A stretch of 64,000 nucleotides of DNA from Syntrophorhabdaceae bacterium (GCA_963665295.1 OY762209.1:832001-896000); one strand, 5' to 3'. Counted from the stretch's first letter, positions 3,824 through 62,806 are shown. The notes: generated by a model from the letters alone, not told the origin. Numbers and translations: made by a program.

Positions 3824-3903
3824 GGGTCAAATCTTTATTCTTGACAAAAGGCGTTTCAGCCGGCCAAAAGTCAAGAATAAACATGAGAATAAAGATTTGA
3901 CCC
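3824..3903. mobile_element. Short non-autonomous inverted-repeat element (MITE/REPIN-like)
   Basis: 18-bp perfect inverted ends GGGTCAAATCTTTATTCT (3824-3841) and AGAATAAAGATTTGACCC (3886-3903), plus an internal partial copy at 3870-3881. Confidence 0.65.
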
Positions 3904-4226
3904 TTGGCCCCCGCTCGCCTAGATATTCCCGGTGCCCTTCCCCAAGTCAACTAAGGCTCGTTGGACTATCGAGGAACATTGTTTGGGGGGAACATACGGG
4001 ACGCTCTTGAACTGTTGATTTCTGAGAAGTAAGTGGCGTTGGCGTGGCTTTCTTGCGCAATATCTAAGGCATATTACCGACCACGCGAGAAATTACTACA
4101 TCCAAACGATCGGATAGACCGGGGGACAGGGCTTGTACTCATCCGCTTCCGCTCCTTTCGCCACGGGTGATTGGTGATAGCGGATTATTTGTTATGCCTG
4201 GCGCGTCTCCTAAAATTACTTAGCGC

Positions 4227-4255
4227 TTGCCGTCTAACGCGGGCCGTTATACAAT
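4227..4255 (+). promoter_or_regulatory. Putative higBA promoter with operator palindrome
   Basis: TTGCCG-17 bp-TACAAT, with a TAACG-N5-CGTTA palindrome in the spacer. Confidence 0.55.
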
Positions 4256-4269
4256 GAGGCAATAAGGGG

Positions 4270-4551
4270 ATGATAAAGTCATTTAGAGATAAAAAGACTG
4301 AGAAGGTATATACCCGTGAAGGTTCACACAAGCTGCCCCCGGATATGCAGCAGGTGGCACTCAGGAAGCTCCGGATGATAAACAATGCCAAAAGCATGGA
4401 CGATCTGAGAGTGCCTCCCGCAGATAGGCTTGAAAAGCTGAAGGGCGACCGGGATGGGCAACTCGGTATAAGAATCAACGACCAATGGCGTATCTGCTTT
4501 GTCTGGAAGGACGACGACGCCGGCGAAGTTGAGATAAGGGACTATCATTAG
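4270..4551 (+). CDS. higB: HigB (RelE/ParE superfamily) toxin
   Basis: MIKSFRDK...DLRVPPADRLEKLKGDRDGQLGIRINDQWRICFVW...EIRDYH. Confidence 0.92.
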   Translation: MIKSFRDKKTEKVYTREGSHKLPPDMQQVALRKLRMINNAKSMDDLRVPPADRLEKLKGDRDGQLGIRINDQWRICFVWKDDDAGEVEIRDYH

Positions 4552-4561
4552 GAGGAGTGTC

Positions 4562-4873
4562 ATGAAGAAAGCTCTGCACCCGGTGCATCCCGGAGAGGTC
4601 CTTTTGGAGGAATTCCTAAAGCCTCTCGACATAAGCCAAAACAGGCTCGCCCTCTCCATTGGCGTACCTGCACGCCGGATAAATGAGATAGTGCTCGAAA
4701 AAAGGCGTGTTACCGCCGATACGGCCTTGAGGCTCGCGCGGTTTTTCGGCAACTCCGCCGAATTCTGGCTGGGCCTCCAGGCGCAGTATGACCTCGATCT
4801 CGCCGCAGAGGCCCTGGGTGACCGCCTCACCAAGGAGGTGAGGACCTACGCGGATACCGGGACCGGGACATAG
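4562..4873 (+). CDS. higA: HigA antitoxin (HTH)
   Basis: HPGEVLLEEFLKPLDISQNRLA...RINEIV...TADTALRLARFFG...FWLGLQ; directly downstream of the toxin. Confidence 0.93.
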   Translation: MKKALHPVHPGEVLLEEFLKPLDISQNRLALSIGVPARRINEIVLEKRRVTADTALRLARFFGNSAEFWLGLQAQYDLDLAAEALGDRLTKEVRTYADTGTGT

Positions 4874-5039
4874 GATTCAAATAGGATGATGTAATGTAAA
4901 CAACCTTATCTTACCGCGCTCACGTGTGAGGCGTGCGTCGATTGGACGAGCCGGTGTGCGCGTTATTAAAGGCTTGTGCCGTATCGTTTAATACGCATAT
5001 CCAACACGCAAGAAAGTTTATTAAGAAGGCCGTCTCAAA

Positions 5040-5201
5040 ATCGACAAATAGCCACAGCATTCTGCCGAGCCTTGTGCTTACCTCCTTGAGCCGAGGGAGT
5101 TCCTGGAGATACTTCTCACTTCCGACACGAAGACCGCACAGAGGGCCTGTATCGCAGTTCAAGTTGATGAGTTGATCGGAGGTGGAGGACTAAACTGTTA
5201 C
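5040..5201 (+). pseudogene. Divergent, decayed 3' end of an IS66-family element
   Basis: HSILPSLVLTS matches HSILPSLIITS of the intact transposase; ends in the terminal repeat GAGGACTAAACTGTTAC (5185-5201). Confidence 0.7.
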
Positions 5202-5254
5202 ATCAGGGAGGGGTACGGATGTCAAGGGAATTTGATTATTTCACGGACGTCCCT
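5202..5254 (-). mobile_element. Isolated left end/promoter of the RAYT-like element
   Basis: The reverse complement AGGGACGTCCGTGAAATAATCAAATTCCCTTGACATCCGTACCCCTCCCTGAT matches the left ends at 16938, 28435 and 40955. Confidence 0.85.
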
Positions 5255-5275
5255 AATGTCCCCCCTAATGTCCCC

Positions 5276-5555
5276 CTTCACGTTCCTTCGCTATCCGGGA
5301 GTACCACCTACCAACAACCAGGCAGAACAGTCGATCCGCTTCCTGGTGATCATGAGGAAGCTCATGTTCGGTACGCGGTCGGCAACGGGACTGAAGACCC
5401 ACAGTATCCTGCCGAGTCTCATCATTACTTCCATGAGGCAAGGGAACGATCCACGGAAGTTCCTGGAGACGCTCCTGGTGTCGGATACCGTGACGGCACA
5501 GGCGGCACTGTATCGCAATGGGGCGAGGGCTCCGTGAGGGGGACTAAACTGTTAC
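5276..5555 (+). pseudogene. IS66-family transposase 3' fragment with terminal inverted repeat
   Basis: Near-identical to the reverse complement of 14977-15256 (FTFLRYPGVPPTNNQAEQSIR...); ends GGGGACTAAACTGTTAC. Confidence 0.92.
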
Positions 5556-5759
5556 AGGATAAAAGGAATCAAACCTGCCCCCGCAGGGGGCTATTACAAC
5601 ATTCGGGACTGGTTCATTTCCTCACCATAGAGTCAGGGGCTCGGGAAAACCTCTTAGCGACGGGTAACTGTCCCTACTCCGGAAAAAGGGCGCAATGGTG
5701 TTCATAACCCCTCTGCCTTGAAGAAATGCTCTTGCTCATGTGTCAGCTTCGAAAGCTCT

Positions 5760-5799: not shown

Positions 5800-5850
5800 C
5801 GAACTGCGTTCTCTTATCATAACATAGTGATTTTACACCATTTATCATTC

Positions 5851-14811: not shown

Positions 14812-14994
14812 CAAAGAAAAGCAAACTGTCTGGTTCGACCCGAAATAGCCCAAATGTAGACTGTATTGGTGGGGTGGAATCAATTGGGCTGCCTGAGCAA
14901 GCAATCGAGTATTACAACAAGGCCTAGCCCGACTTCGCGGATTCACCCCCTAAAACGACCATTTTCACTTTTTCTGGTAACAGTTTAGTCCCCC

Positions 14995-16515
14995 TCACGG
15001 AGCCCTCGCCCCATTGCGATACAGCGCCGCCTGTGCCGTCATGGTATCCGACACCAGAAGCGTCTCCAGGAACTTCCGTGGATCGTTCCCTTGCCTCATG
15101 GAAGTAATGATGAGACTCGGCAGGATACTGTGGGTCTTCAGTCCCGTTGCCGACCGCGTACCGAACATGAGCTTCCTCATGATCACCAGGAAGCGGATCG
15201 ACTGTTCTGCCTGGTTGTTGGTAGGTGGTACTCCCGGATAGCGAAGGAACGTGAAGAGAAACTTCCGGTCTTTGCCGGTAAGGAAGGTACGGAGCACTTC
15301 CGCCGGCTTATACTTGAGGGGCTTTGCACATATCTTCCCGAGGGTTGCTCTCAATTGCTTCTCGATGCGGGGAGCATCTCCCCACTCTCTCTTTCCCTTA
15401 AGAAGATCCCCGCCCGCGGCGCAGGCATCCGAGAAGAGCCTCCCGACCGCATCACAGAACGCCTCCGCTTTTGTATCTCTTGTCTCCATGAGGACGAGAT
15501 CCCGGGTCAATTCTCCGGCCCTGGTGATAAGGTGGGCAAGGCATGTCTGCCTTTCTCTCGCATGAACTCCGTTATACGCGGCATAGCGGTCGGTGATGAG
15601 CACCCCGTCGAAGTTGTCCCCGAGAAGATGTTGAGCCACTTCTGTCGAGCGGTGCCGGTCGATATGGAAGAGGGCAAGATCGGCGTTTCCCGCATACCAC
15701 GCGTAATGACCGGTCCCGTCGTTCCTCCATGATGTCTCATCGGCATGAACTATTTCCGAGGCGCGTATCTTCTCCCGGAGGTCTTCATAAAGAGGTGTCC
15801 CCCTTTTCGCCGCAGCCCTGTCAAACCCCACTGCCGACGCAGGGACAAAGGGTATACCAAAGACCTCCCTCATAACTTCCTCTACCTTTCGATAGCTCAT
15901 ACCTATCCTGTACCGCAAGTATAAGGCAACGGATTTCGTAACCGGTCCGATAGGAGCATTCGGAAGTTCGTCGGGAGCCGCCTTCACCACAGAACGCCCG
16001 CAACGGCTACAGTATGCTTCCTTATGCACATACCGTCTCACCACCGTGCGGGGTCTTATGACAATGTCTTCCTGCACATGCTCACGGATCCCTTCCCCGG
16101 GGACAAGAGGGCCTGACCCGCAATGGGGGCATCGATCGGGAGCGGGCACGTGAACCGTCGCATCCACGCGGGCAGGCTCGGGCCTGAACCACCCGGGGTG
16201 TCCGACCGGAGCGCCGCGCTTCCTCCCTGCCAAAGAGACCGCATGCTCCGGTTTTTTGTTCGCCTTGAACTGTCTTCGATGCAATGCGGTATTCTTCGCC
16301 TTCAGTTCCTCGTTCTCCTTCTCTAAAAGACGGATACGCTTCATGGTGTCATCCAGCCTGTCCCGGAACACATCGATAATCCGAAGATGCTCTTCGTACA
16401 CCTCATGGGCCCGCTCATATTCTCCAAAGACCCATAGGGTGGAGAGAAAGTTAAGATGGGGGCAATTGTCCTTATAAAGACAATCGTAGCCGTATGGAGG
16501 ATAGACCCTCTTCAC
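14995..16515 (-). CDS. tnpC: IS66-family transposase
   Basis: Coiled coil, KRGAPVGHPG, CPHCG...CSRCG, HADETSW, TDRYAAY, CLAHL, PPTNNQAEQSIR. Confidence 0.92.
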   Translation of the reverse strand: MKRVYPPYGYDCLYKDNCPHLNFLSTLWVFGEYERAHEVYEEHLRIIDVFRDRLDDTMKRIRLLEKENEELKAKNTALHRRQFKANKKPEHAVSLAGRKRGAPVGHPGWFRPEPARVDATVHVPAPDRCPHCGSGPLVPGEGIREHVQEDIVIRPRTVVRRYVHKEAYCSRCGRSVVKAAPDELPNAPIGPVTKSVALYLRYRIGMSYRKVEEVMREVFGIPFVPASAVGFDRAAAKRGTPLYEDLREKIRASEIVHADETSWRNDGTGHYAWYAGNADLALFHIDRHRSTEVAQHLLGDNFDGVLITDRYAAYNGVHARERQTCLAHLITRAGELTRDLVLMETRDTKAEAFCDAVGRLFSDACAAGGDLLKGKREWGDAPRIEKQLRATLGKICAKPLKYKPAEVLRTFLTGKDRKFLFTFLRYPGVPPTNNQAEQSIRFLVIMRKLMFGTRSATGLKTHSILPSLIITSMRQGNDPRKFLETLLVSDTMTAQAALYRNGARAP

Positions 16516-16790
16516 TCGCTCTCCTGTTTCAGTATCTCCCAGTTGATCTTAGAAAGCTTCTGTATGAGAAGCCACATCATCTTGTACCGCTTCGTCATCT
16601 CCTTCGCCTTCTCGGCAATCTGTTTTCTCACATACACGGTTACGGTCTTCCCCTTCACTTTTGTGGTAAGGGAGTGGCCCGTCATGGAAGGGGACTTGGC
16701 CACCGTCCCGATAAGGAAGAAATCCAGCTGTGCGACAATGTCCTCCTTAAGTCTCTCCCGCTGCCTTTTAAGAAGATCGATTTGTTCCAT
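16512..16790 (-). CDS. Small IS66 accessory protein (DUF6788-like)
   Basis: Lies inside the IS termini, overlaps the transposase start by 4 nt; TTKVKGKTVTVYV motif. Confidence 0.7.
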   Translation of the reverse strand: MEQIDLLKRQRERLKEDIVAQLDFFLIGTVAKSPSMTGHSLTTKVKGKTVTVYVRKQIAEKAKEMTKRYKMMWLLIQKLSKINWEILKQESE

Positions 16791-16937
16791 TGAACCCTCC
16801 GACTGAGTAGTAGTACTCCTATTATAATACCATCATGGAACAAGGGAATCAAAGGTGTTGTGCAAATTAGACATAATATTTTGCTGGAAAAAGTTCCGAG
16901 AGGACTAAACTGTTACCAAAGAACCTGGGGGACCATG

Positions 16938-17950
16938 AGGGACGCTCATTAATTAATCAATTCCATTGACATCCGTACCCCTCCCTGATACCATATCTTC
17001 ATGCCGAGAAAAGCTCGCATTGATGTTCCTGGGGCGGTGCATCATCTTATGGTGCGGAGTATCGCCCGAAGCGTCCTCTTCCGTGACGACACAGACAGAA
17101 ATAGATTCATTGACCGCGCTGCAACGGTCTTCACGGAAGGCAAAGCGGGCTGCTACGCCTTCGCCCTTCTTTCAAACCATGTGCATCTCCTTGTCAGGAC
17201 CGGCATTGTTCCTCTATCGACCCTCATGACACGGATCCTGACGGGTTACGCAGTCTCTTTCAACAAACGGCATAAGAGGTACGGCCACCTTTTTCAGAAC
17301 CGCTACAAATCGATCCTCTGCGAGGAAGATCCCTATTTCAACGAGTTGGTCCGTTACATCCATCTGAAGCCGCTCCGGGCGCGCCTTATTCCCGACCTCA
17401 ATACCCTCGACTCCTATCCCTACTCAGGCCATGCAACGCTCATGGGGCGATACGAAAGATCATGGCTCGATACGGACTATGTCCTTTCCCGGTTCGGCTC
17501 GAAAACCCTCTACAGAGCATTTGTGGAGGCAGGCATAAAAGAGGGAAGGCGACATGATCTCACCAGGGCGAATATCAAGGGCGATGAGCGCATCCTGGGG
17601 AGCACGCGTTTTGTCCTTGAAGTAATGAAGTCCGCGGGGGAGGCATGGGAACACACCCAGCGCCTCAAAGTAGAGGGCGTTGATTTCGAGGCTGTCTTAT
17701 CTCACGTGGAGAAGCAGTTCGGTCTTGACCCCGGGGAGCTTCTTCGTCCAGGCAAGTATCCTCGTCGCGTCGCCGCCCGCAGCGTCCTCTGCTATTTTCT
17801 CGTAAGAGAGCTTCACATGACCGCAACAGCAGTGGCCGGGAGGCTGGGTCTAGGTCAGCCCGCAGTAAGCATTGCAGTCGCAAGAGGCGAAGCCCTGGTG
17901 CGAGAGAAAGGCTATAGCATGGCTGATTTGATGGGTTAATGGAGGTCTCT
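16938..17950 (+). mobile_element. RAYT-like Y1 transposase element, copy 1
   Basis: Imperfect inverted ends AGGGACGCTCATTAA and TTAATGGAGGTCTCT; near-identical to 28435-29459. Confidence 0.8.
17001..17939 (+). CDS. REP-associated-type tyrosine (Y1/HUH) transposase
   Basis: MPRKARID, HHLMVR, NHVHLL (HUH), GHLFQNRYKS, VRYIH, C-terminal HTH; 4 aa shorter than copy 2. Confidence 0.88.
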   Translation: MPRKARIDVPGAVHHLMVRSIARSVLFRDDTDRNRFIDRAATVFTEGKAGCYAFALLSNHVHLLVRTGIVPLSTLMTRILTGYAVSFNKRHKRYGHLFQNRYKSILCEEDPYFNELVRYIHLKPLRARLIPDLNTLDSYPYSGHATLMGRYERSWLDTDYVLSRFGSKTLYRAFVEAGIKEGRRHDLTRANIKGDERILGSTRFVLEVMKSAGEAWEHTQRLKVEGVDFEAVLSHVEKQFGLDPGELLRPGKYPRRVAARSVLCYFLVRELHMTATAVAGRLGLGQPAVSIAVARGEALVREKGYSMADLMG

Positions 17951-17981
17951 GTGTCCCCCCCCTTTTGAAGTTAAATTCGCC

Positions 17982-18149
17982 GTCCTTACGCGAATCCCCG
18001 TCTCCAAAAGCACATGGTGGGCCGGAATCCGTGAAGGCCGATTTCCCAAACCGGTCAAATTGAGTACCCGGGCGACGGCATGGCTGGAGGCAGATATTGA
18101 TGCGTTGTGTGAAGCCCTGTGCGCTGAAAGCGGGAACCAAAGAAATTGA
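17982..18149 (+). pseudogene. AlpA-family regulator/excisionase, 5'-truncated
   Basis: Manual translation VLTRIPVSKSTWWAGIREGRFPKPVKLSTRATAWLEADIDALCE...; no in-frame start downstream of the element junction. Confidence 0.8.
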
Positions 18150-18234: not shown

Positions 18235-18483
18235 ATGTCAACCGCGCAAAGACGTTCAAGTGACCCGATCAAGATCAAGCAGTTTGTTACCAATCCAAAG
18301 GGCCACAGGATCGCCGTCACCATCGATATAAAGGAATATGAGAGATTGGAGAAAATATTGAAGCTCATTCCTTCCTCTGAGGCATGGCTTTATGAGAACT
18401 CCGAGGCCCTGGAAAGCGTCGGGAAAGGGTTGCAGGACGCGGCGCAGGGAAAGGTTTCCAAGCTCAACCTGAAAGACCTGTAG
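18235..18483 (+). CDS. Putative antitoxin
   Basis: IPSSEAWLYENSEALESVGKGLQDAAQGKV; upstream of a RelE-like gene. Confidence 0.65.
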   Translation: MSTAQRRSSDPIKIKQFVTNPKGHRIAVTIDIKEYERLEKILKLIPSSEAWLYENSEALESVGKGLQDAAQGKVSKLNLKDL

Positions 18484-18490
18484 GCCCCTC

Positions 18491-18784
18491 TTGTTCGAAA
18501 TCTACCTTACCGACCACGCAAGGGAACAACTCAACACGCTTAAGGCCGACAAGGGCCTCCTCAAAAGGCATAAGGCAGTCGTGAAGACTATCCGCCTTCT
18601 CGCCGACAACCCCCGTCACCCGGGGCTGTCAACCCATGAATTTACGACTCTCAAAGGCCCCAAGGGTGAGAAGATTTTCGAAGCCTATGCAGAACAAAGG
18701 ACACCGGCTGCCTACCGTATTTTCTGGTACTACGGTCCCGGCGAAGGCCGGATCACCGTCGTTGCCGTTACTCCACACCCGTAG
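18491..18784 (+). CDS. RelE/ParE-like toxin
   Basis: LLADNPRHPGLSTHEF...FEAYAEQRTPAAYRIFWYYGP...ITVVAVTPHP. Confidence 0.7.
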   Translation: MFEIYLTDHAREQLNTLKADKGLLKRHKAVVKTIRLLADNPRHPGLSTHEFTTLKGPKGEKIFEAYAEQRTPAAYRIFWYYGPGEGRITVVAVTPHP

Positions 18785-18870
18785 GCCGGGAAGCACCACT
18801 TGTATGCTCCTTGCTCTGCCGAACGGGTCCGATGTCCTGGACAATCCGTCCGCCAAGACTTATCCCAGGT

Positions 18871-19131
18871 CTATTTTTCGTAAAACAGGTTGCGAAACGC
18901 ACAACATTCTGCTAAATAGGCCAGCCTGAAGGTATCCGTGATGATGTCGGCTCTACTAATATTTGAATCAATTTCGGAGTCCCACTTTTGGCCAGGGACG
19001 ATCTTTCTGTCATGCCACGTTTCGACAAGGTCTTGGCGCTTCAAGATGGCCAAGTGTGTCTCAAGTTCATCCTTATAGATTTCGTCTTTATGAGAGTAGC
19101 TATAGAAAACTCGAAGCTTGGTTATCGTCAT
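18871..19131 (-). pseudogene. Truncated TIR-domain protein
   Basis: RVFYSYSHKDE...ETWHDRKIVPGQKWDSEIDSNISRADII; TIR similarity stops abruptly near 18940. Confidence 0.8.
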
Positions 19132-19465
19132 AGGCCTTGTTGGGAACGTCCCTCGTTGTCTTGACTCGCCGCATGGGTTTACCAACTCGCCAGCGTCAGG
19201 ATATCATATTCTATCGATTACCATTTGAAGAACTGGATGTCCAGAAGAATTAGTAGAAGGTCGCGCTCGGGAGCCGATCGGAGTCGGCTGGGTCGGCTTC
19301 TGCGTGTTATGATGGAATCTGAGTGACTTGTTTGTTTTTGGGGGTAGTAACATGCTTGGCACGTATGATAATGATACATGTCTAACATCAATATGTTACG
19401 CCACTAATGCGATAGACGCCGCCGAAATGGATTGGGCCCTTCCGGGCCTATGATTTGAGGGCTTC

Positions 19466-23226: not shown

Positions 23227-23418
23227 TCAAGCGAGGTGTTGTTCGATTTGTCGAAAAGGGGTACCAGGGTTGACCGGCGTCTCCATGTACCCGTTATACC
23301 CCGCCTCGACCGTTTTCTCCCGGTCTCCCGCCGTGGCGCACGAGGTTACGGCATTAATGGGAACCCCGGCGAGGCCTTCCTTTGCCCTGAGCCGTCTCGC
23401 CACGGCATAACCGTCCGT
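23227..23418 (-). pseudogene. C-terminal half of a single-domain response regulator
   Basis: DGYAVARRLRAKEGLAGVPINAVTSCATAGDREKTVEAGYNGYMETPVNP...; cut at the inverted-repeat element starting 23421. Confidence 0.75.
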
Positions 23419-23420
23419 GA

Positions 23421-23612
23421 GGGGACGGCTTTCAATAATGCAATCGCTTTCACCCTTCTTACTCCTTCTATTCTCCTCTTGAGCCGAAACAATGTCAACT
23501 GATTCCTGATATGAGGACCATCACCGGACCGTACGAACCGGCCCGGGGGAATGTCTATCATCCTCCGTCCTAACTGCCTATCTCGATAATTGAAATATTG
23601 AAAGGTGTCCCC
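23421..23612. mobile_element. Short non-autonomous inverted-repeat element
   Basis: GGGGACGGCTTTCAATA (23421-23437) and TATTGAAAGGTGTCCCC (23596-23612), 15/17 complementary. Confidence 0.65.
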
Positions 23613-23866
23613 TTGGACATTAACGAGCCTCTTGGAGTGTTATTAAATGTTTCCTGCATATCGTTTAATAAGCTCATAGACTATGCAAGAAAGTTTGGTA
23701 AGAAGACTCAACGAGAGTTCCTTCCTTGCCTCGCCGGGGACGGACCGGACGAGGGCTCCGTCCCTTGGGATGCGCTCATTCTAGGGGGTGGGCTCCCGCC
23801 TTTTTTGTGCCTATTCCCGACGTCAAAAGGTGGTGGTTATTCGACTGATGGATGTCCCCTATCCCC

Positions 23867-28434: not shown

Positions 28435-29459
28435 AGGGACGCTCATTAATTAATCAATTCCATTGACATCCCTACCCCTCCCTGATACCATATCTTCATG
28501 CCGAGAAAAGCTCGCATTGATGTTGCAGGGGCGGTGCATCATCTTATGGTGCGGGGTATCGCCCGAAGCGTCCTCTTCCGTGACGACACGGACAGGGATA
28601 GATTCATTGACCGCGCTGCAACGGTCTTCACGGAAGGCAAAGCGGGCTGCTACGCCTTCTCCCTTCTTTCGAACCATGTGCATCTCCTTGTCAGGACCGG
28701 CATTGTTCCTCTATCGACCCTCATGACACGGATCCTGACAGGTTACGCAGTCTCTTTCAACAAACGGCATAAGAGGTCCGGCCACCTTTTTCAGAACCGC
28801 TACAAATCGATCCTCTGCGAGGAAGATCCCTATTTCAACGAGTTGGTCCGTTACATCCATGTGAATCCCCTCCGGGCGCGCCTTATTCCCGACCTCAATA
28901 CCCTGGACTCTTATCCCTACTCAGGCCATGCAACGATCATGGGGCGATATGAAAGACCATGGCTCGATACGGACTATGTCCTTTCCCGGTTCGGCTCGAA
29001 GACCCTCTACAGAGCATTTGTGGAGGCAGGCATAAAAGAGGGAAGGCGACATGATCTCACCGGGGGCAACCCTGCGACGAATATCAGGGGCGATGAGCGC
29101 ATCCTGGGGAGCACGCGTTTTGTCCTTGAAGTAATGAAGTCCGCGGGGGAGGCATGGGAACACGCCCATTGCCTCAAGGCAAAGGGCGTTGATTTCGAGG
29201 CTGTCTTATCTCACGTGGAGAAGCAGTTCGGTCTTGACCCCGGGGAGCTTCTTCGTCCCGGCAAGTACCCCCGTCGCGTCGCCGCCCGCAGCGTCCTCTG
29301 CTATTTTCTCGTAAGAGAGCTTCACATGACCGCAACGGCAGTGGCCGGGAGGCTGGGTCTAGGTCAGCCCGCAGTAAGCATTGCAGTCGCAAGAGGCGAA
29401 GCCCTGGTGCGAGAGAAAGGTTATAGCATGGCTGATTTGATGGGTTAATGGACGGCCCT
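28435..29459 (+). mobile_element. RAYT-like Y1 transposase element, copy 2
   Basis: Imperfect inverted ends AGGGACGCTCATTAA and TTAATGGACGGCCCT. Confidence 0.8.
28498..29448 (+). CDS. REP-associated-type tyrosine (Y1/HUH) transposase
   Basis: HHLMVRG, NHVHLL, GHLFQNRYKS, RYIHVNPLRA. Confidence 0.9.
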   Translation: MPRKARIDVAGAVHHLMVRGIARSVLFRDDTDRDRFIDRAATVFTEGKAGCYAFSLLSNHVHLLVRTGIVPLSTLMTRILTGYAVSFNKRHKRSGHLFQNRYKSILCEEDPYFNELVRYIHVNPLRARLIPDLNTLDSYPYSGHATIMGRYERPWLDTDYVLSRFGSKTLYRAFVEAGIKEGRRHDLTGGNPATNIRGDERILGSTRFVLEVMKSAGEAWEHAHCLKAKGVDFEAVLSHVEKQFGLDPGELLRPGKYPRRVAARSVLCYFLVRELHMTATAVAGRLGLGQPAVSIAVARGEALVREKGYSMADLMG

Positions 29460-29483
29460 ATTGTTCCACGTCCCTGTTGCCCC

Positions 29484-29660
29484 AAGAACTTCGTGCCGGC
29501 CCTGATCGAGGAAGGGGATGAGCTATACCCAAACGGAATATTCGTTTTCAACATCACCAAGATGCTCACGTTCATACAAAGCCATCCTGAGAAGTTCATT
29601 CCTGAGAGGGTAGCGATAAGGGATTATACACACGGGCTCCCCTCTATCAAGGAAGCCGAC
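29484..29660 (+). pseudogene. Internal fragment of a hypothetical protein
   Basis: KNFVPALIEEGDELYPNGIFVFNITKML... reads as protein-like, starts right after the element junction, and has no RBS or start of its own. Confidence 0.4.
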
Positions 29661-37713: not shown

Positions 37714-39203
37714 AGGCTCTTTCCCTCCAGGATAGCGCTTAATGATCGTCGCAAATGACGCGAGCTTTCCAGCCAGTCGGCGAGGGCTTTGGTAAGCTGG
37801 TCAGACCCGGGCGTTTTACCTGCCTCCGCTGAAGAAGGTGAGCCCGTCACATAGAGCGGGATGCTGAGATTGTAACTCCTGGCCCGAATTTCCTCCTGTG
37901 CGGCCGCGCAGGTAAAGCCAGGTTCGTCCCTGAACTCACGATAGGCTTCAACGATACGCGCAATATGCTCGTCGGTAAGAAAACTCTGGGCACGCTCTCG
38001 TGTAACCTCGTTCACCGCATTGATGAAGAGAATCCGGCCCCTCCTCGCCGCAGGTTTGGCTGTTCGGCATATGACGACGCAGGCCTCCATGGGTGAGTTG
38101 TAGAAAAGATTCGGTCCAAGGCCGAGGACACACTCAATGAGGTCGGCTTCAATGATCTTGCGACGCATCTCCGCCTCTTCCCGGCGAAACAGTATGCCAT
38201 GGGGGAAAAGAATAGCCGAGCGGCCCGTTTCGGGCTTAAGGCTCATGAGGATATGCTGCCAGAATGCATAGTCGGCCCGTCCCTGGGGCGGGGTGCCGTA
38301 AATGTTGCGACCCCAGGGATCGGATGCGAAGGCTTTCCGGTCCCACTGCTTGATGGAATAAGGAGGATTGGCGAGGCACACGTCAAACTGCCGGAGGCGG
38401 TCGCCCTCAACAAGCTTCGGTTCCGAGAGTGTATCCCCTCGAACGACTTGAAAGTCCTCAATCCCATGAAGAAAACAGTTCATCCGCGCAATAGAGGAGG
38501 TCATGAGGTTCCGCTCCTGACCATAGAGGCGGACGTTGCGCCACTCCAGATTCCGATGCCGCAATTGGGCAATGCAGGAAAGAAGCATGCCCCCGGAGCC
38601 GCACGTAGGGTCATAAATGGACTCGCCCGGCTGTGGTTCGAGCATCTCCGTCATAAGATGGACCACAGTGCGGTTGGTATAGAATTCGGCCGCGGTATGT
38701 CCCGAGTCGTCGGCAAATTTCTTGATAAGGTACTCGTAACCCTGGCCCAGTTCGTCTTCCGGAAGATTGGCAAGACTGAGTTCCAGAGTACTGAAGTGTT
38801 CCACAAGGTCTCTCAGCATGGCATCGGAGAGGCGGTCTTTGTTGGTCCATTGGGCGTCCCCGAAAATGCCGTAGAGCTTTTCGGGATTTGCAGTCTCTAT
38901 GGCCCGCATTGCCGACTGAAGTTTTCGACCCACGTTCTTAGCCGCTTGCCGCACCTGCCGCCAGTGCGCATCGGCAGGTATCTGAAACCGATGATTTTCC
39001 GGGAAGGCGGCAAAGTCCACATCTCCGCCTGATTCGTTGAGCGCCTGCTCCGTCTCCTCGTCGAAGACATCACAGAGCCTCTTAAAGAAGAGCAACGGGA
39101 AGATGAGCTGTTTATAGTCGCCCGCGTCAATGGTCCCCCTGAGGAGCGTAGCTGCTCCCCAGAGATAGGATTCGAGTTGCCGTTGGGTAATGCGGACCCT
39201 CAT
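37710..39203 (-). CDS. hsdM: Type I methyltransferase subunit, NPPY type
   Basis: YDPTCGSGGML, LANPPY, EFYTNRTVV. Confidence 0.95.
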   Translation of the reverse strand: MRVRITQRQLESYLWGAATLLRGTIDAGDYKQLIFPLLFFKRLCDVFDEETEQALNESGGDVDFAAFPENHRFQIPADAHWRQVRQAAKNVGRKLQSAMRAIETANPEKLYGIFGDAQWTNKDRLSDAMLRDLVEHFSTLELSLANLPEDELGQGYEYLIKKFADDSGHTAAEFYTNRTVVHLMTEMLEPQPGESIYDPTCGSGGMLLSCIAQLRHRNLEWRNVRLYGQERNLMTSSIARMNCFLHGIEDFQVVRGDTLSEPKLVEGDRLRQFDVCLANPPYSIKQWDRKAFASDPWGRNIYGTPPQGRADYAFWQHILMSLKPETGRSAILFPHGILFRREEAEMRRKIIEADLIECVLGLGPNLFYNSPMEACVVICRTAKPAARRGRILFINAVNEVTRERAQSFLTDEHIARIVEAYREFRDEPGFTCAAAQEEIRARSYNLSIPLYVTGSPSSAEAGKTPGSDQLTKALADWLESSRHLRRSLSAILEGKSL

Positions 39204-40720
39204 ATGAGCAGGCCCTCCCGCTTCAAGATAGCGGCGAGCTTTTCCTCTGCCGCAAACGCTGCTTCGGCGCTTTCTTTGAGCCGTTTCACGGCCTCATCCA
39301 TCGTCAGCACTTCCTGATCGGCTAAAGGCTCCACATAGCGGGGAATATTGAGATTATGGTCGTTGGCGGCGATCTCGTCGAGGCTCACTACCCGGGCAAT
39401 ACCTTTCACATCCTTGTAATCCCGATACCATTTGTAGATATATTCGACGTGCTCGGGGAGAAGCTCATTTTGGGCCCTCCCGGACTTGAACTCTCGCGAG
39501 GCGTCCAGTATGAGCACCTTCTTCTTCCGTTCTTTGGTCTTGCGCTGCCTGAGGACCAGGACACAGGCGGCCAGGCCGGTGCCATAGAAGAGATTCGGCC
39601 CAAGGCCTATGACGGCTTCCAGGAGGTCCATCTGCAGGATCTTCTGTCGTATGGTCCCCTCCTTTCCCATTCGGAATAGCACCCCGTGGGGCAACACTAC
39701 GGCCATCCTGCCCGTGGCGAGGGCCATGGATTTGATCATGTGTTGCACCCAGGCATAATCTCCCGTCTTTGAGGGCGGCATTCCGGCAAAGTTCCGACCA
39801 TAAGGGTCGTTTGTCCACACCTCTTCGCCCCACTTCTGGAGTGAAAAGGGCGGATTGGCGATGACGCAGTCGAAGGTGGCAAGGTTGTCTCCCGAGAAGA
39901 ATGCGGGTTGGCGCAAGGTATCGCCTCGCACTACCTGGAAATCGCTTGCGCCATGATGAAAGAGATTCATCCGGGCTATGGCGGAGGTAGTGAGATTCTT
40001 TTCCTGGCCGAACAGCTTGCCCCAAAGCGTCCTGTCGTCTCCGTGATTCTCCTTTACGTGATGAACGGCTTCGAGTAACATACCGCCGGTGCCGCAGGCC
40101 GGGTCGTAAATGGACTCTCCTTCCCTGGGATCGAGAATATTAACCATCAGCCTCACCACCGAGCGTGGTGTATAAAACTCACCTGCTTTCTTATTCGTGA
40201 GATCGGCAAACTTCTTGATCAGGTACTCGTAAGATTGGCCCAGGATATCCGCCTGAGCCGACTGGTTGCCAAGCGCAATTCCTGAGAAATGTTCAATGAG
40301 GTTCTTGAGCAGGGCGTCGGGCAGACGGTCTTTATTGGACCATGCGGCGTCGCCGAAAATGCCATAAAGCGTCTCGGGGTTCGCCTTCTCTATGCCGCGC
40401 ATAGCCTTTTGAAGGGCTTGGCCGACATTCGTGCCGACCACCCGGACATCGCTCCAATGACAGTCTTCCGGGATTTGAAACCTGTAGTTCTGAGGGAAGC
40501 GGGCATATTCTTCATCGCCATCCGACTCGGCCAGGGCAGCCACATACTCCTCGTCGTAGACATCAGAAATACGCTTGAAAAAGAGCAGGGGGAAGACATA
40601 GGTCTTGAAGTCGGCGGCATCCACGGGGCCGCGCAGGATGTTCGCAGATTCCCAGAGGTGGGCCTCAAGCAGGCTTAAGGTGGCTCCGTTCGCGCCATTT
40701 TTGTTCATCGAGTTTGCCAT
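39200..40720 (-). CDS. hsdM: Type I methyltransferase subunit, NPPF type
   Basis: GEFYTPRSVV, YDPACGTGGML, IANPPF. Confidence 0.95.
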   Translation of the reverse strand: MANSMNKNGANGATLSLLEAHLWESANILRGPVDAADFKTYVFPLLFFKRISDVYDEEYVAALAESDGDEEYARFPQNYRFQIPEDCHWSDVRVVGTNVGQALQKAMRGIEKANPETLYGIFGDAAWSNKDRLPDALLKNLIEHFSGIALGNQSAQADILGQSYEYLIKKFADLTNKKAGEFYTPRSVVRLMVNILDPREGESIYDPACGTGGMLLEAVHHVKENHGDDRTLWGKLFGQEKNLTTSAIARMNLFHHGASDFQVVRGDTLRQPAFFSGDNLATFDCVIANPPFSLQKWGEEVWTNDPYGRNFAGMPPSKTGDYAWVQHMIKSMALATGRMAVVLPHGVLFRMGKEGTIRQKILQMDLLEAVIGLGPNLFYGTGLAACVLVLRQRKTKERKKKVLILDASREFKSGRAQNELLPEHVEYIYKWYRDYKDVKGIARVVSLDEIAANDHNLNIPRYVEPLADQEVLTMDEAVKRLKESAEAAFAAEEKLAAILKREGLLI

Positions 40721-40954: not shown

Positions 40955-41156
40955 AGGGACGTCCATTAAATAATCAATTTCCCTTGACATCCGTACCCCT
41001 CCCTGATGCCATATCTTCATGCCGAGAAAAGCTCGCATTGATGCCGCAGGGCCCTTAGAGCCGACCCGCTGTCCCGGGAGATCGAGGGCATACTGCCGGT
41101 TTCCAGGGTGAGGGGTGAAAGAGGTGACTAACGTCACTATGCCGAGGATGTCCCCT
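40955..41156 (+). mobile_element. Internally deleted derivative of the RAYT-like element
   Basis: Left end, promoter and first codons MPRKARIDAAG (ATG 41019), then unrelated sequence ending GGATGTCCCCT. Confidence 0.8.
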
Positions 41157-41187
41157 GAGGGCCCCCAAGCTCCGGGAGTTTCGGCGT

Positions 41188-45647: not shown

Positions 45648-45923
45648 ATGAAACGGCTTACATTTATTGTTTTCGCTCTCGCGGCCCTTTACGGGTGCGC
45701 CACGGACAAGCCGCAGTCGGCGATAATGAACCAACCCGGCGATTACAAACTGGGGTACAGCGACGGGTGCGCCAGCGGTCACTTTGAGGGGGGTCATCCG
45801 TACGACCAGTTTGTGAAGGACAATTACCGCTACATAAAAGATGCCCTCTATTCGCAGGGGTGGAAGGATGGCTTTGTCACCTGCAAAAATGAGTACATTG
45901 CGAAGGAAAGGGACAACCGCTAG
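45648..45923 (+). CDS. Small lipoprotein
   Basis: MKRLTFIVFALAALYGC lipobox; YKLGYSDGC and YSQGWKDGF motifs. Confidence 0.75.
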   Translation: MKRLTFIVFALAALYGCATDKPQSAIMNQPGDYKLGYSDGCASGHFEGGHPYDQFVKDNYRYIKDALYSQGWKDGFVTCKNEYIAKERDNR

Positions 45924-47002
45924 TGTAGTGTCTCAGTAACGCCTTTACAGCGATTCACTTTTTCAAGTATCTCCTCGGCCTTCCTGGTCCATACGAAGGG
46001 TTTGGGGTCTTCGTTGTTGCAGCGAATATATTCTTCGATGGCGGTCACCAGTTCCTGAACGCTTTTGAAGATGCCGCGACGAATTCTCTTTCGTGTGATC
46101 TCCCCGAACCAGCGCTCCACCAGGTTAAGCCACGACGAGCTTGTGGGTGTAAAGTGGGGAACGAAACGGGGGTGTTTTTCGAGCCATGCTTTCACATTGG
46201 GGTGGGTATGAGTTCCGTAGTTGTCGAGAATCATATGGACATCGAGGCCCTTTGGCACCTGACGGTCTATGGTACGCAGGAACTTAAGAAATTCGGTATT
46301 TCTGTGGCGGGGATAGCAGGAGCCTATGACTTTTCCTTCCAGAACATTGAGGGCGGCAAAAAGACAGGTAGTGCCGTTCCTTTTGTAGTCGTGGGTCATC
46401 GTGCCGCAGCGCCCCTTCTTCATCGGTAATCCCGGCTGGGTCCGGTCCAGGGCCTGCACCTGGCTTTTCTCATCCACACAGAGTACCACCGCTTTGTCGG
46501 GAGGATTGAGATAGACGCCCACCACATCGGTCAGTTTCTCCACGAACTTCTTGTCTCTGGACAGCTTGAAAGTTTCTACCCGATGGGGCTGTAGTCCATG
46601 GGCATCCCAGATGCGCTGCACGGTGGCATGGCTCACGCCCTTCTCCTTTGCCATGGTGCGGGTGGACCACTGAGTAGCATCTTTGGGAGTTGTATGGAGC
46701 GTGGCTTCCACGATGGTGCGCACTATCTCCGGGTTAAGGCGCCTTGAACTCGGCCCATGGGGTGCGTCCTCCGATAAGCCCGAGGGGCCCTGTTCTCTGA
46801 AGCGGCCTACCCACAATATCACCGTAGGGCGGGAGGTATTGAGCCTCTTCGCTATGGCGTTATGGGACATCCCTTCTGCCGCGAGCAGGCAGATGCGGGA
46901 GCGTAGAACCACCCTTTGGGGAGTCTTCTTTGCTTTGACCCATGTTTCCAATGTCTTTCTCTGCTCTTCCGTCATGTCTAGCGTACTGGCTGGATTCCAC
47001 AT
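45920..47002 (-). CDS. IS630-family transposase
   Basis: CVDEKSQVQALDR, HDYKRNGT, ILDNYGTH, SWLNLVERWF. Confidence 0.95.
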   Translation of the reverse strand: MWNPASTLDMTEEQRKTLETWVKAKKTPQRVVLRSRICLLAAEGMSHNAIAKRLNTSRPTVILWVGRFREQGPSGLSEDAPHGPSSRRLNPEIVRTIVEATLHTTPKDATQWSTRTMAKEKGVSHATVQRIWDAHGLQPHRVETFKLSRDKKFVEKLTDVVGVYLNPPDKAVVLCVDEKSQVQALDRTQPGLPMKKGRCGTMTHDYKRNGTTCLFAALNVLEGKVIGSCYPRHRNTEFLKFLRTIDRQVPKGLDVHMILDNYGTHTHPNVKAWLEKHPRFVPHFTPTSSSWLNLVERWFGEITRKRIRRGIFKSVQELVTAIEEYIRCNNEDPKPFVWTRKAEEILEKVNRCKGVTETLH

Positions 47003-58876: not shown

Positions 58877-58965
58877 AAGGAAAGCCTGGGAGAGGGAGCT
58901 ATCGAATTATTGGACGTTCCCCTCGTCCCTAAATTCAGGGGAGATGGCAAGGTTGAATTGGACTT

Positions 58966-59037
58966 GGAGACGTAGTTGACGAGCGTGACAAACTCGGTTG
59001 AATCTACGAGTAACTCACGATGGTCAACTACGTCCCC
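58966..59037. mobile_element. Short non-autonomous inverted-repeat element
   Basis: GGAGACGTAGTTGAC (58966-58980) and GTCAACTACGTCCCC (59023-59037), 14/15 complementary. Confidence 0.65.
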
Positions 59038-59051
59038 TATTTACTCCCTGG

Positions 59052-59600: not shown

Positions 59601-59603
59601 TTT

Positions 59604-60149
59604 TCATTGTGAAAGTTCAAATTTAAAAAACACATATTTCCCTTGCTCCTTCTTGAACGAGAACTCGCCTCCCCCACCTCCCGGTCGGTTGTTGTACGCA
59701 GGAACGAACCTGACCACAGTAAGAGTTCCCTCTTCAGTGAGATCAACATGTGTTTTGTTTACGTCTATGTAGTAGAGCTGCGCAATTTCTCTGGTTAGCT
59801 CAATCAGCTTCTTCTTGTCACCTTCAGGGACCGATCTCCAAACAACGTGTCGAAGCTTGATGTCTGAGTAAACATACCCTTTGGGTTCCTTCCGAAAGAA
59901 GACGCTGCCGCTGCCGCCCCGTTGGGAAGGGACCTTTGGCATGAACCTGACTTCGACGTAACCGTCTCCAGTAGTGAAAACAACATAGGATTGACCCACA
60001 TTTATGTAATTGCTCTCCGCAATCTCGCCGGCCGCCTGGATTAGCCTCTCTCTATTCTTAAGAAGATCGCCTTCGGCGCCATATGCATTACCTACTATCC
60101 CGCCACAACAAAATGCTAGGCAGAGAAGCAATGATACCGCTGTATTCAT
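59604..60149 (-). CDS. Hypothetical exported protein with an internal duplication
   Basis: Signal peptide; two similar halves (LI...EIA..YI.V...VRF.P...GG.G...F.KE...YV). Confidence 0.7.
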   Translation of the reverse strand: MNTAVSLLLCLAFCCGGIVGNAYGAEGDLLKNRERLIQAAGEIAESNYINVGQSYVVFTTGDGYVEVRFMPKVPSQRGGSGSVFFRKEPKGYVYSDIKLRHVVWRSVPEGDKKKLIELTREIAQLYYIDVNKTHVDLTEEGTLTVVRFVPAYNNRPGGGGGEFSFKKEQGKYVFFKFELSQ

Positions 60150-60577
60150 TCGGTCCTCGCTATTATGGTGTTATTCATTAGTCTTTATCAGGGCTATACC
60201 CAATTATAGTTTTTGGTGAAACCGTTTTTTGACGGGGCTCGGAACTTAGGGGAACTATTCTTAACCGCCAGCGAAAACGGTTTTACCGATTCGTGGTATC
60301 GGTTTTACCGGCTCACTAATGCTACTCTGGGTGTTGGCATAGGCCCCGACAACATATATTACAATCGTAGTTGCCAAAAGAATCAACACTTTGACAACGA
60401 GCTGCCATGGGCTATTGGCTCTCATTCTTCCATACACCTGAACCTCCTCAGTCACCCAGAACGTGTGCAAAAAGAAGGGCACAGGGCCCAGAGACGCGAC
60501 AGATGCAATGGCGCATGTTGCTGAAGCACTGACCGACTTGTGAAATATGAACCTTACTGCAGACATAAGTATCGTAG

Positions 60578-61803
60578 CTAGTGTCACGTCACTCATCTAA
60601 TGTCGGATAAAGTCGCCTAAGTTTCACCCGCGCATCCTTAGTAGTAAATTGCCAGTTCACCTTTGCGTTGAGATTGTCGCGATGGGCCTGCCAGGCAGAC
60701 ACGGCGGAGTGGACCTCGGCGAGAGTGTCGATCCGGCGACTCAGGCATTGATGAATGAGCACGTTAAGCTCAATCTCCGCCATATTGAGCCAGCTTCCAT
60801 GTTTGGGAGTATAGACGAATTCAAAGCGGTCCCAGATGCGTTTGGCCTCTTCGGGAGAAAAGGCTTCATAAAGAGAGCCGGGTTTATGGGTGTTCAGGTT
60901 ATCCATGACAAGGGTGATCCTTTTGGCCTTTCCATACCGTCCTGAAAGTTCCCGGATGAACTCCGCCCAGTCGCGCTTCGTTCTCCTTTCCGATACCTTG
61001 GTCAGGCGCGTGCCCGCCAATGGTTCGTTGGCCATAAATACGGTACAGACGCCACATCGCTCGTATTCGTAGTCGTGACGCTCGAGCCGTCCCGGAGCGC
61101 GGGGAATCGGGGTACGCGTTTCTTTGATCAGTTGTCTTGGGGTTTCATCCATACAGACCACCGGGAATCTTTTATCATACGGGCGTTTATATACATCGAG
61201 TACGTTCTCCATGGCGGCGACGAAATCAGCATTGCCCTCCGGTGGAATGACCCATCCTTGCTGCTTCCAGGGTTTTGTTTCGTTTTTTTAAAACCCGACG
61301 CACGGTTTCATAGGAGATATTCTCGATATAATTGAGCGCTACGGCCCGGTTCGCGAGCATACGCAAGGTCCACCTCGCAAAACCTTCTGGTGGTTCGCTA
61401 CAGCTCAAGGCAATGAGGTGGGCCTCGAAATCGCCATCCGCCTTCTTCTCGTAGACTCGCTCTGCTTTGTGTCCGGTAAGGGCAGTCTCAAGTCCTTCTT
61501 CCACGAATCGCTTTTTTACTCTATCTATCTTACGCATGCTGATTCGCAACACTGCCGATATATCCTCGTTCTTCATCGGGTGGTCCTGGAACCGGCCCTG
61601 ATCGCAATTGAGAAGAACCAGCGCATTGAGCACCTTTTGGGCTTTATGATTTCCTTTTTGCACCACGCCTTCAAGTTCCTTTCGCTCTTCTTTTTCGAGC
61701 ACCACCCTATATTTTATCATTCGGACCTCCCCATGGTGAAATTTAACCCTTGAGGAGATTCTATATCATACTATACGACATTACAAGTGTGATGTGACAC
61801 TAG
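60578..61803 (-). mobile_element. IS630-family element at a CTAG site
   Basis: Ends CTAGTGTCACGTCAC and GTGATGTGACACTAG, 14/15 inverted. Confidence 0.92.
60589..61720 (-). CDS. IS630 transposase in two ORFs joined by a probable -1 programmed frameshift
   Basis: HTH ORF 61226..61720 and DDE ORF (CMDE, VMDNLNTH, SWLNMAEIE); A7 run on the minus strand at 61283-61289. Confidence 0.88.
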
Positions 61804-61822
61804 TATGCCGCCTGCAATGCCA

Positions 61823-62212
61823 CTATTTTTGGGCAGTCGCTTTTCTTTCATCGAAGACTTCTTTTGCAATGAGAAGGGCGTTCATGGAGAGAACCATGCC
61901 GGCGCTTGGAATGATCTGCAGCAGTACTTCAATAATTTCCTTTTCTGAGCAGCCTACATTCAGTGCTGAGTTGATGTGAACTTTCACCTGAAGTGGTGCG
62001 GTACCCATGGTTGCCATGCTGGCCAGTGCAATCATTTCTTTTGTCTTCAGGTCTAATCCTGAGCGACTATAGATATCTCCAAAAACAAATTCCACCAGAT
62101 ATTGAGCAAAATCGGGGGATATTTCTTTCATCGTTTCAATTACTCTTGTTCCTATTTCACCTTCCATCTCTGTAATTTTTGCTAATCCTCTCCGGTATCT
62201 CTCAGAATCCAT
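61823..62212 (-). CDS. Carboxymuconolactone decarboxylase family protein
   Basis: FVFGDIYSRSGLDLKTKEMI, VHINSALNVGCSEKEIIE. Confidence 0.88.
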   Translation of the reverse strand: MDSERYRRGLAKITEMEGEIGTRVIETMKEISPDFAQYLVEFVFGDIYSRSGLDLKTKEMIALASMATMGTAPLQVKVHINSALNVGCSEKEIIEVLLQIIPSAGMVLSMNALLIAKEVFDERKATAQK

Positions 62213-62329
62213 TCCATGACCTCCAATATTCTTTTGGTGATCTGCTTCATGTCTACGTCACTATTACCATTTCTGTTCCAGCCGTACAAGAAAAAAGGCA
62301 GAATTGAGGACATGTTCGGGAAGGACAGC

Positions 62330-62652
62330 CCCCTCTGAAACCCTGCGGGCCTTCCTTATGGGTAAGTACTTGTTCACTTTTCTTCGCCATCCCGGCGTCC
62401 CTCCGACCAACAACCAAGCAGAGCAGTCAATCCGCTTCCTGGTGATCATGAGGAAGCTCATGTTCGGTACGCGGTCGGCAACGGGGCTGAAGACCCACAG
62501 TATCCTGCCGAGTCTCATCATTACTTCCATGAGGCAAGGGAACGATCCACGGAAGTTCCTGGAGACGCTCCTGGTGTCGGATACCGTGACGGCACAGGCG
62601 GCACTGTATCGCAAATGGGGCGAGGGCTCCGTGAGGGGGACTAAACTGTTAC
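62330..62652 (+). pseudogene. IS66-family transposase 3' fragment with terminal inverted repeat
   Basis: FTFLRHPGVPPTNNQAEQSIR...; ends GGGGACTAAACTGTTAC at 62652; 1-nt insertion near 62615. Confidence 0.9.
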
Positions 62653-62806
62653 TTTACGGTCGTCCCCCAATGGCCCCCAATAACATGCTGGATCCATATT
62701 CGACATAATCCTTTCCTTTCTATTATTGTTTTTGCTTAGCTCGGCGAAGAGGCCATATGCTATACTACACGCGTGTGTTACAATAAAATCTCAGATCTGG
62801 TGAGAT

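Follow-up and report, generated by a model that had tools for sequence, protein, structure and literature searches.

The window analysed here is a 64,000 nt stretch of the genome of a Syntrophorhabdaceae bacterium (GCA_963665295.1, OY762209.1:832001-896000), a genome referred to below as G000 (window G000:C1:832001-896000). A bipartite motif, GTCCC-N3-9-CCCC, recurs at junctions in this region and was attributed by the original prediction to an undescribed transposase-driven system that shuffles cargo between such ends. The motif sites are identified here as the outer tips of the terminal inverted repeats (TIRs) of a known, little-studied Y1/HUH element, the TIRtron. It is probable that the Y1/HUH transposase (TIRYT) nicks one strand at this tip and rejoins it to other DNA ends. 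In many microbes, insertion sequences (ISs) from a DUF6788-carrying clade of the IS66 family are located about 22 nt beyond such TIRs, with the left end towards the repeat.

All ten of the originally listed stretches are present at their coordinates, however the motif is literal at only six of them (5249, 16943 on the minus strand, 23854, 29470, 41150 and 62662). The stretch at 3899 requires GACCC, and those at 17945, 58916 and 59032 deviate. The window holds 13 literal matches, where the genome averages 5.9 per 64 kb (range over bins 0–14; Markov nulls 3.1–9.4 per 64 kb). Genome-wide there are 513 matches, which is within the 475–710 found for nine control 5-mers with the same CCCC tail. The literal motif therefore carries no genome-wide signal and was rejected as one. 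Sites were instead scored with a 30 nt TIR profile trained on 58 targets from other genomes, none of them from G000. Five of the 13 literal matches (29255, 32113, 50108, 52518 and 56333), with profile scores of -7.1 to 2.5, are chance occurrences, while the remaining eight are located at element ends. Scores of 11–21 were obtained at 3903, 5253, 16939, 41154, 59036, 62666 and 23422. The sites at 17945 and 29454 are the degenerate right TIRs of two Y1 genes, and those at 23858 (score 6.8) and 58920 (score 4.4) are weak solo TIR-like ends. [quoted passage not shown] Since its outer G/C run is not conserved across TIR families, the bipartite motif does not constitute a fixed signal; at ends with legible scars, the outer G-run is often a truncated copy of the TIR core left by duplication.

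Two TIRtron copies are present in the window, both on the plus strand. The first (16939..17962) has its left core at 16939, a Y1 gene at 17001-17939, a degenerate right core at 17949 and a C-run to 17962. The second (28436..29483) has its left core at 28436, a Y1 gene at 28498-29448, a right core at 29458 and an outer scar to 29483. The copies are 95.6% identical over 1018 nt, and both genes (PF01797, E 1.9e-9) lie between inverted repeats with the core GGGAC. The Y1 protein of the second copy is 316 aa long, with the HUH histidines H60 and H62 and the tyrosine Y119. Among 44 aligned sequences H62 and Y119 are invariant and H60 is nearly so, and 31 of the 44 contain Bac_DnaA_C (PF08299, E at most 0.01). 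The window protein scores below the PF08299 threshold, yet aligns across that region. A second TIRtron family in G000 has two intact copies (1027 of 1060 aligned columns identical), and the genome also contains internal-deletion derivatives of about 160 bp and many solo ends. Matches to Y1 are found in 28 of 41 genomes, G000 included, most of them between TIRs with GGGAC or GGGTC cores; TIRs are present at both ends of both window genes and of most relatives. The core is GGG[AT]C in general, with a family-specific tip 6–14 nt outside it. In G000, 41 sites have a TIR-profile score of at least 17, with about 11 of the 41 expected by chance. In viral contigs the only Y1 match was a single short one.

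By their domains and TIRs, the window elements are assigned to the TIRtron/TIRYT group of Di Nocera et al. (2013, PMC3733652), which is TnpA-Y1 subclass 2.1.2 as described by Quentin et al. (2018, PMC6006769). This subclass is in turn group 1 of the REP-associated tyrosine transposases (RAYTs; REP, repetitive extragenic palindromic), for which Bertels et al. (2017, PMC5581495) report the highest duplication rate among RAYTs. As in the published TIRtron, a Y1/HUH gene with a C-terminal DnaA-like helix-turn-helix (HTH) lies between GGGG[AT][CG]A[CG]-like TIRs, and TIRs also occur as singles, dimers and clusters. The TIRs match the published GGGGWSAS consensus (PMC3733652); cores read GGGACG or GGGTCA, and GGGACG departs from the printed form after the C. 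The match in domains and TIRs means that these elements were already known, having been published in 2013 (PMC3733652), and the claim that the system was undescribed does not stand. The main-text passages of the TIRtron publications, taken without supplements or figures, describe no tip outside the core, tip-anchored tandem duplication, truncation of adjacent genes, mechanism or TIR-targeting IS.

The proposal of hairpin-ended RAYT elements was likewise not borne out, as the flanks are inverted repeats and contain no REP hairpins. The GTAG-tagged high-copy REP hairpins of a REPtron are absent, there being no GTAG foot in the flanking repeats, and the score for NF047646 is 57.8, under the cut-off of 80. 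A reading of the ends as CGTC-tagged REPs was dropped because GGGTCA-type TIRs have no such tag, and TIRs are kept apart in the passages of PMC3733652 that treat them. The subterminal hairpins, lack of TIRs and short TnpA of IS200/IS605 do not describe a 316-aa protein encoded between TIRs, nor do the Y2-type or ISCR transposase and distinct ori and ter ends of IS91/ISCR describe a PF01797 Y1 gene with inverted repeats. IS91 is capable of one-ended transposition, and the IS91/ISCR elements move by rolling-circle transposition. The TIRtron may work in a similar way without being a member of that group.

The short duplicated end scars of the original prediction are found well beyond the window. 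They were assessed at 76 TIR ends beside Y1 genes in other genomes, after exclusion of ends with flanks shorter than 70 nt, N-containing ends and three weak right ends. An exact tandem duplication adjoins the core at 17 of these 76 ends, with the signal peaking at the TIR boundary. In the controls the count is 2 among 380 outward-shifted positions, 16 among 3000 GGG[AT]C sites picked at random and 15 among 2000 sites rich in purines. The repeated unit is made up of 7–14 nt of outer sequence and 0–29 nt of the TIR. In ends with several units (L184, L192, L198 and L200) the outer breakpoint is fixed and the inner breakpoint is variable. Genome G296 contains a very active TIRtron family, with 38 TIR matches as against 0 for the reversed control, near-identical copies of 1031 bp distributed over five contigs, and a nested series of partial copies (76, 125, 128, 147, 819 and 1008 nt), each starting at the TIR. 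The tip in this family is 6–7 nt outside the core, and 10 of 10 right ends have a G at -6. Inspection by eye, without a formal test, made no target duplication evident for the G296 copies. In a comparison looking for simple insertion into one gene, no Pfam family was common to the two flanks among 24 flank frames. Tip-anchored scars of this form are likely to be the work of the transposase itself.

Nested head-to-tail arrangements of full and partial TIRtron copies are seen on G296 contigs C6, C14 and C15 (L269, L276, L279 and L281-L293). In G000, tandem TIR-containing units of 138 bp (192708-192998) and 57 bp (187643-187759) belong to families for which a Y1 gene was not found in that genome.

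Genes are cut at TIR ends more often than at control sites, as had also been proposed. Across G000, a cut in a gene with a paralogue was flagged at 8 of 55 TIR ends and at 5 of 220 intergenic controls, with paralogue hits available for 17 and 55 of these, respectively. Six of the eight cuts hold on inspection; the other two are one intact IS end and one gene end. Three cuts in the window are confirmed. The right-end fragment of an IS66 element at 5277..5555 (plus strand) has its transposase cut at about codon 420, exactly at a TIR tip, and intact IS66 copies continue differently from the window sequence at 5276. The AlpA gene at 17963..18149 (plus strand) has no start and is cut at the outer C-run of the first TIRtron copy; it covers Pfam positions 10–48 of 51, and a paralogue has the missing start. 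The REC-domain gene at 23227..23421 (minus strand) is cut at a TIR core, leaving the C-terminal half (Pfam 56–104 of 111) with the first half gone. None of the missing halves is on the far side of the elements. The fragment at 29484, also listed as cut, has no family match. The stop codons noted beside ends at 23867 and 59052 are read from the sequence as positions only.

From these patterns we infer a strand-transfer mechanism for the TIRtron. The C-terminal HTH of TIRYT would bind the double-stranded TIR, and the catalytic tyrosine would nick at the tip and keep the 5' end, leaving a 3'-OH on the flank. The held 5' end would then be joined to whichever 3'-OH attacks. Should the nascent strand be extended from the nick before attacking, the product would be a tip-anchored duplication of a few nt to about 1 kb, the outer end of which is fixed. 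If the attacking 3'-OH lay further out, an adjacent deletion truncating the neighbouring gene would result; if it lay elsewhere, the outcome would be complete or one-ended transposition. The fixed outer and variable inner breakpoints fit such a nick-extend-rejoin scheme. It is the scheme presented for amplification of bacterial interspersed mosaic elements (BIMEs) by Escherichia coli TnpA-REP (Ton-Hoang et al. 2012, PMC3333891), applied to inverted repeats. The two share a nick 3'-OH that acts as primer and extension by a host polymerase; in the published model a tandem unit is added when the 5'-phosphotyrosine comes under attack from a second 3'-OH, and neighbouring DNA can be captured (PMC3333891). 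Unlike those of TnpA-REP, the ends here are inverted repeats without GTAG hairpins, and both ends are scarred. In addition, whole TIRtrons are found as near-identical copies at several loci, whereas REPtrons are said in that literature not to move as a unit.

An alternative is that the scars and cut genes arise from host processes such as replication slippage and microhomology repair, or from adjacent deletions driven by IS66, which would leave the TIRs and the IS66 homing described below as they are. The junctions do carry 1–4 nt of G/C microhomology, and IS66 loci do rearrange, given that matching duplication on both outer sides is present at only two of seven IS66 loci. The 5276 junction is also 22 nt from the core, which is the IS66 offset. 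However, the duplications peak at the TIR boundary at ends of Y1 genes with no IS66 end seen alongside, and the cut genes adjoin TIR tips rather than IS66 ends. Slippage does not predict a fixed outer breakpoint combined with an inner one that varies by up to about 1 kb in G296. This explanation is therefore considered improbable.

Rather less probable is the strong form of the original prediction, in which a Y1 system resembling an integron would excise cargo, shuffle it and insert it between the bipartite end sites. The many solo ends, the chimeric MITEs with unrelated middles and the accessory genes between ends in the window would suit it, and TnpA-REP units are described as able to sequester flanking genes (PMC3333891). 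No defined cargo cassette was identified, however, and in the blast comparisons no gene enclosed by a pair of tips recurred at a second place. Many of the flanking genes are truncated instead of whole, families differ in the outer G-run, and no excision joint was found in the examined contigs.

The second part of the interpretation favoured here, that an IS66 clade is directed to TIRs, rests on an element with the complete 1940-bp copy at 14977..16916 (minus strand) as its window representative. This copy carries only DUF6788 (16512-16790) and TnpC (14995-16515), without the TnpA and TnpB of classical IS66 elements, and its left inverted repeat (IR), at 16916, faces the TIR of the first TIRtron copy. 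The 22 nt interval between them (16917..16938, plus strand) contains the originally listed motif at 16927-16943. The window element scores 235.6 with NF033517 (cut-off 180), and in the clade PF03050 is found in 42 of 42 members and zf-IS66 in 25 of 42, with GTAA-starting IRs and an 8-bp target duplication. We take this two-gene element to be of the single-TnpC type (ISBst12 group). It shares with that type the DDE_Tnp_IS66 domain, zinc finger, IRs and target duplication, and differs in having DUF6788 as its sole other gene, a clade-conserved N-terminal Cys segment, TIR homing and tandem arrays.

There are 13 full copies of this IS66 at seven loci in G000, and in all seven exactly 22 nt separate the outermost left end from a TIR core. 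A survey of 114 loci from other genomes and metagenomes yielded 75 distinct usable left flanks, the others being too short (12), without a left end found (26) or a duplicate (1). GGG[AT]C is present at 21–23 nt in 59 of the 75 left flanks, 42 of these at exactly 22 nt, compared with 5 of 81 right flanks. The 59 targets carry 38 different 12-nt TIR starts, and among the 37 hits for which 400 nt or more of flank are available, 17 have a Y1 gene in the locus. Usable left flanks come from 16 genomes, each of which has one or more TIR hits, and their host taxa include deltaproteobacteria, Nitrospirota, Verrucomicrobiae, Chlamydiales, Bacteroidales and Bathyarchaeia. The offset was repeated at 5 of 5 held-out loci from within the clade and at 0 of 9 loci of distant outgroup IS66. 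For eight other multi-copy IS families in G000, compared after removal of two overlapping sub-families and of the IS66 rows, a site scoring at least 12 is found within 40 nt at 0 of 132 ends; one IS end is 3 nt from a lower-scoring TIR. Plasmids contain only distant haloarchaeal IS66, for which a script found no IR pair. The mosaic structure once ascribed wholly to the Y1 system is therefore in part due to this IS66 clade inserting 22 nt from TIRs, a contribution that had not been recognized.

The IS66 transpososome would dock on the TIR and cut just outside the tip. Since the landing site would survive the insertion, it could be used repeatedly, generating head-to-tail arrays. In all four G000 arrays the spacer nearest the TIR repeats the 7–8 nt flank next to that TIR. 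This is what is expected if insertion recurs at a single site, and such recurrence explains the tandem IS66 arrays. Contigs holding array spacers, MITE joints and 5276-type joints are found in five public sequencing runs, with the 5276-type joint supported by only 30 nt on one side. The triple IS66 arrays at G000 819804-825640 and 1356390-1362224 each have one spacer identical in kind to the duplication found at a different locus, which suggests that arrays have recombined with each other or that IS dimers have moved.

It is highly improbable that IS66 does not target TIRs and that TIR ends were instead carried or inserted beside IS66 left ends and copied along with them. Six of the seven G000 targets do belong to one TIR family with similar outer tips, however the 8-nt IS66 flanks differ at all seven loci, and the number of different TIR starts among the targets speaks against copying of a single junction. 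A target duplication of 7–8 bp, the mark of IS66 arriving last, is kept at 19 of 57 two-ended loci (18 with 8 bp and 1 with 7 bp), which largely refutes this alternative. Least probable of all is that motif and junctions are chance features of a G+C-rich mosaic region, for although the literal motif shows no enrichment and some window matches are fortuitous, the inverted repeats of Y1 genes and MITEs are found at the very sites listed, which refutes it for the TIR sites, and the duplication and IS66 statistics are far from their controls.

Several points weigh against nicking at the tip and TIR-directed IS66 insertion as set out above. Among 57 hand-picked G000 ends, only five have an exact duplication. 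The cut-gene test likewise used hand-picked ends, paralogue hits were available at only 17 of 55, and its controls were without hand inspection. Junctions are 10–13 nt outside the core in four cases and at about 0 nt for REC, and the one at 5276 is where a doubled tip ends on its far side; as these offsets vary, a single nick position is not fixed. The examined contigs of public sequencing runs contain no empty site, circle or excision joint. For IS66, 16 of the 75 left flanks are outside the 21–23 nt window, and the loci are kin, so that p-values and counts overstate their independence. The involvement of the TIRYT protein in targeting faces three further observations. The 30-nt profile alone ranks the seven G000 targets within the top 5–40 of 11 million positions, which means that direct read-out of the DNA could suffice. 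IS66 uses 6 of 7 family-B sites as against 1 of 11 family-A sites, both families having intact Y1 genes. Finally, the archaeal metagenome-assembled genome G292, of which the completeness is not given, has an IS66-TIR hit and no TIRYT match.

Among the 41 top-scoring G000 sites (at least 17), 18 are TIRs whose families have an intact Y1 gene, and IS66 is present at 7 of these; it is present at 0 of the remaining 23, of which chance would account for about 11. TIRYT is found in 9 of 10 genomes carrying the IS66 clade, although this discriminates little because so many relatives have a Y1 match in any case (28 of 41). Between docking on a TIR occupied by TIRYT and direct read-out of the DNA, there is a slight preference for the protein-occupied TIR. 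The possibility that IS66 mistakes the TIR for its own IR was rejected, as the orientation is opposite and distant clade members without GGAC in the IR keep the target. DUF6788 as a TIR-specific targeting domain is unsupported, since it precedes varied transposase- and recombinase-like open reading frames. It is found at 29 loci in 19 of 201 genomes, where neighbour families were judged by eye from translations; upstream of these 29 loci the TIR profile has three hits, and in no case does an element end stand at the 22-nt offset from the hit. Its modelled fold is a helix-hairpin-helix with only generic helical matches (top Z 9.9). The TnpC model has ISCth4 and other DDE enzymes as its best matches, with low TM-scores, and no targeting domain was identified in it. 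The N-terminal Cys-containing segment of TnpC, in which C12, C18 and W28 are invariant, is a candidate for the targeting part.

A sister group of IS66 elements of about 2340 bp (L037, L039, L043 and L337), about 28% identical to the window TnpC, has TTGACA exactly 19 nt from an IS end in 4 of 4 elements for which the left end or both ends could be recognized. This sequence, a -35 box, is at the left end in three of these elements and at the right end in L037. The accessory gene of L039 is DruA/PF14236-like, and L338, a shorter relative, has TTGACC at 20 nt. This suggests a sister IS66 clade that inserts adjacent to promoters.

While the TIRtron is of a known kind, the TIR-homing IS66 clade is the more surprising result, more so than the scars. 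The open literature searched, with supplements, figures, ISfinder and subscription journals outside the search, yielded no account of TIR homing by IS66, none of TIRtron scars anchored at the tip, no description of IS66 target choice and, in the papers listed, no mention of DUF6788. The closest parallel is p-MULT targeting by TnGBS, ISLre2 and ISKra4 (Guerillot et al. 2014, PMC3942029), in which a DDE transposase likewise inserts in one orientation, 15–17 bp from a box that is left intact. Here the transposase family is another one, IS66 being absent from the main text of that paper, and the box is the TIR of another mobile element, 22 nt away. The use of a Y1-associated repeat as a landing site is shared with the REP-targeting IS1397, ISKpn1, IS621, ISPsy8, ISPpu9/10 and ISRm22 (Tobes and Pareja 2006, PMC1525189). 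Those belong to the IS3, IS110, IS4, IS256 and IS5 families, and the precise ones insert into the palindrome (PMC1525189), whereas IS66, which does not appear in that main text, inserts beside a non-palindromic TIR.

The other TIR-related features of the window are mostly solo ends and MITE-like elements. A MITE-like element at 3824..3912 has two GGGTCAAATCTT-type TIRs (cores 3824+ and 3903-, profile 15.9 and 12.9), with a C-run on the outside that extends to 3912; Y1 genes in L016, L017 and L019 are flanked by the same TIR. It is followed at 3998..4030 (plus strand) by a TIR of another family (GGGACGCTCTTGAA, profile 11.2), with a literal motif match at 4002- that was not originally listed; a similar TIR is beside a Y1 gene in L011. 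A solo family-A TIRtron left end at 5202..5276 (minus strand, core 5253, profile 21.4) has two tandem outer-tip copies, and its inner side is adjoined by the IR of a variant IS66 right-end fragment (5052..5201, plus strand). At 23422..23611 is a second MITE-like element with two TIRs (cores 23422+ and 23611-, profile 15.4 and 21.2), followed by the weak end with core 23858 (23835..23866, minus strand), which adjoins the stop codon of an RCC1-repeat gene. The element at 40956..41166 is a chimeric MITE consisting of a family-A left end with the first 50 nt or so of the Y1 gene, an unrelated middle and a second TIR-like end (core 41154-; profile 23.3 and 11.2). The degenerate solo end with core 58920 (58896..58930, minus strand) resembles an end at G000 4985594, and a short MITE at 58966..59048 has GGGACGTAGTTGAC-type TIRs (cores 58967+ and 59036-, profile 16.6). 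At 62331..62652 (plus strand) is an IS66 right-end fragment with its IR adjoining the inner part of a family-B TIR remnant (62653..62678, minus strand, core 62666, profile 12.8) that retains the outer tip. The IS66 ends at 5201, 62652 and G000 1119916 and 2659510 adjoin the TIR on its inside or are fused with the tip, and are off-register insertions or the result of later deletions.

Fragments of a single small gene are present at 4946-5028 and at 23625-23715, the latter adjoining the outer end of a MITE, with a longer paralogue at G000 814117-814350. A HigBA-like toxin-antitoxin pair (4270-4873) and a RelB-like antitoxin gene (18235-18929) are near TIR ends, and a fragment of a TIR_2 protein domain is at 18871-19185. 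A YcaO cyclodehydratase beside a nitrile-hydratase-like leader peptide gene (3451-3729) is probably a locus for a ribosomally synthesized and post-translationally modified peptide (939-3729). At 29848-40720 is a type I restriction-modification cluster. Besides a pair of HsdM genes it includes a GmrSD_N+AlbA_2 protein as well as a DUF4062/Fic-C protein that holds a 12-bp tandem repeat (36418-36510). Two DDE_3 elements, presumably of the IS630 type, are located at 45920-47002 and 60578-61803, the second with a split transposase gene and 32-bp IRs.

The scars provide a testable nick position and reaction scheme for the TIRtron, for which the G296 family offers good material for biochemical work. 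As a two-gene DDE element that inserts with one end leading, at a constant distance from a 30-bp site that it leaves intact, this IS66 is a new example of safe-haven targeting; such homing explains tandem IS arrays and makes the element a candidate compact tool for site-specific integration. A tentative joint reading, with the balance somewhat against it, is that TIRtrons are active two-ended rolling-circle elements, in which an HTH-guided nick at a set distance outside a double-stranded repeat would duplicate, delete or move neighbouring DNA, and that the IS66 clade docks on the TIR-bound HUH protein, the sister clades adjacent to -35 boxes using the same docking logic with a swapped targeting part. 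If true, this IS66 group would be a small, re-targetable, fixed-offset integrase, and a transposon that hunts transposons.

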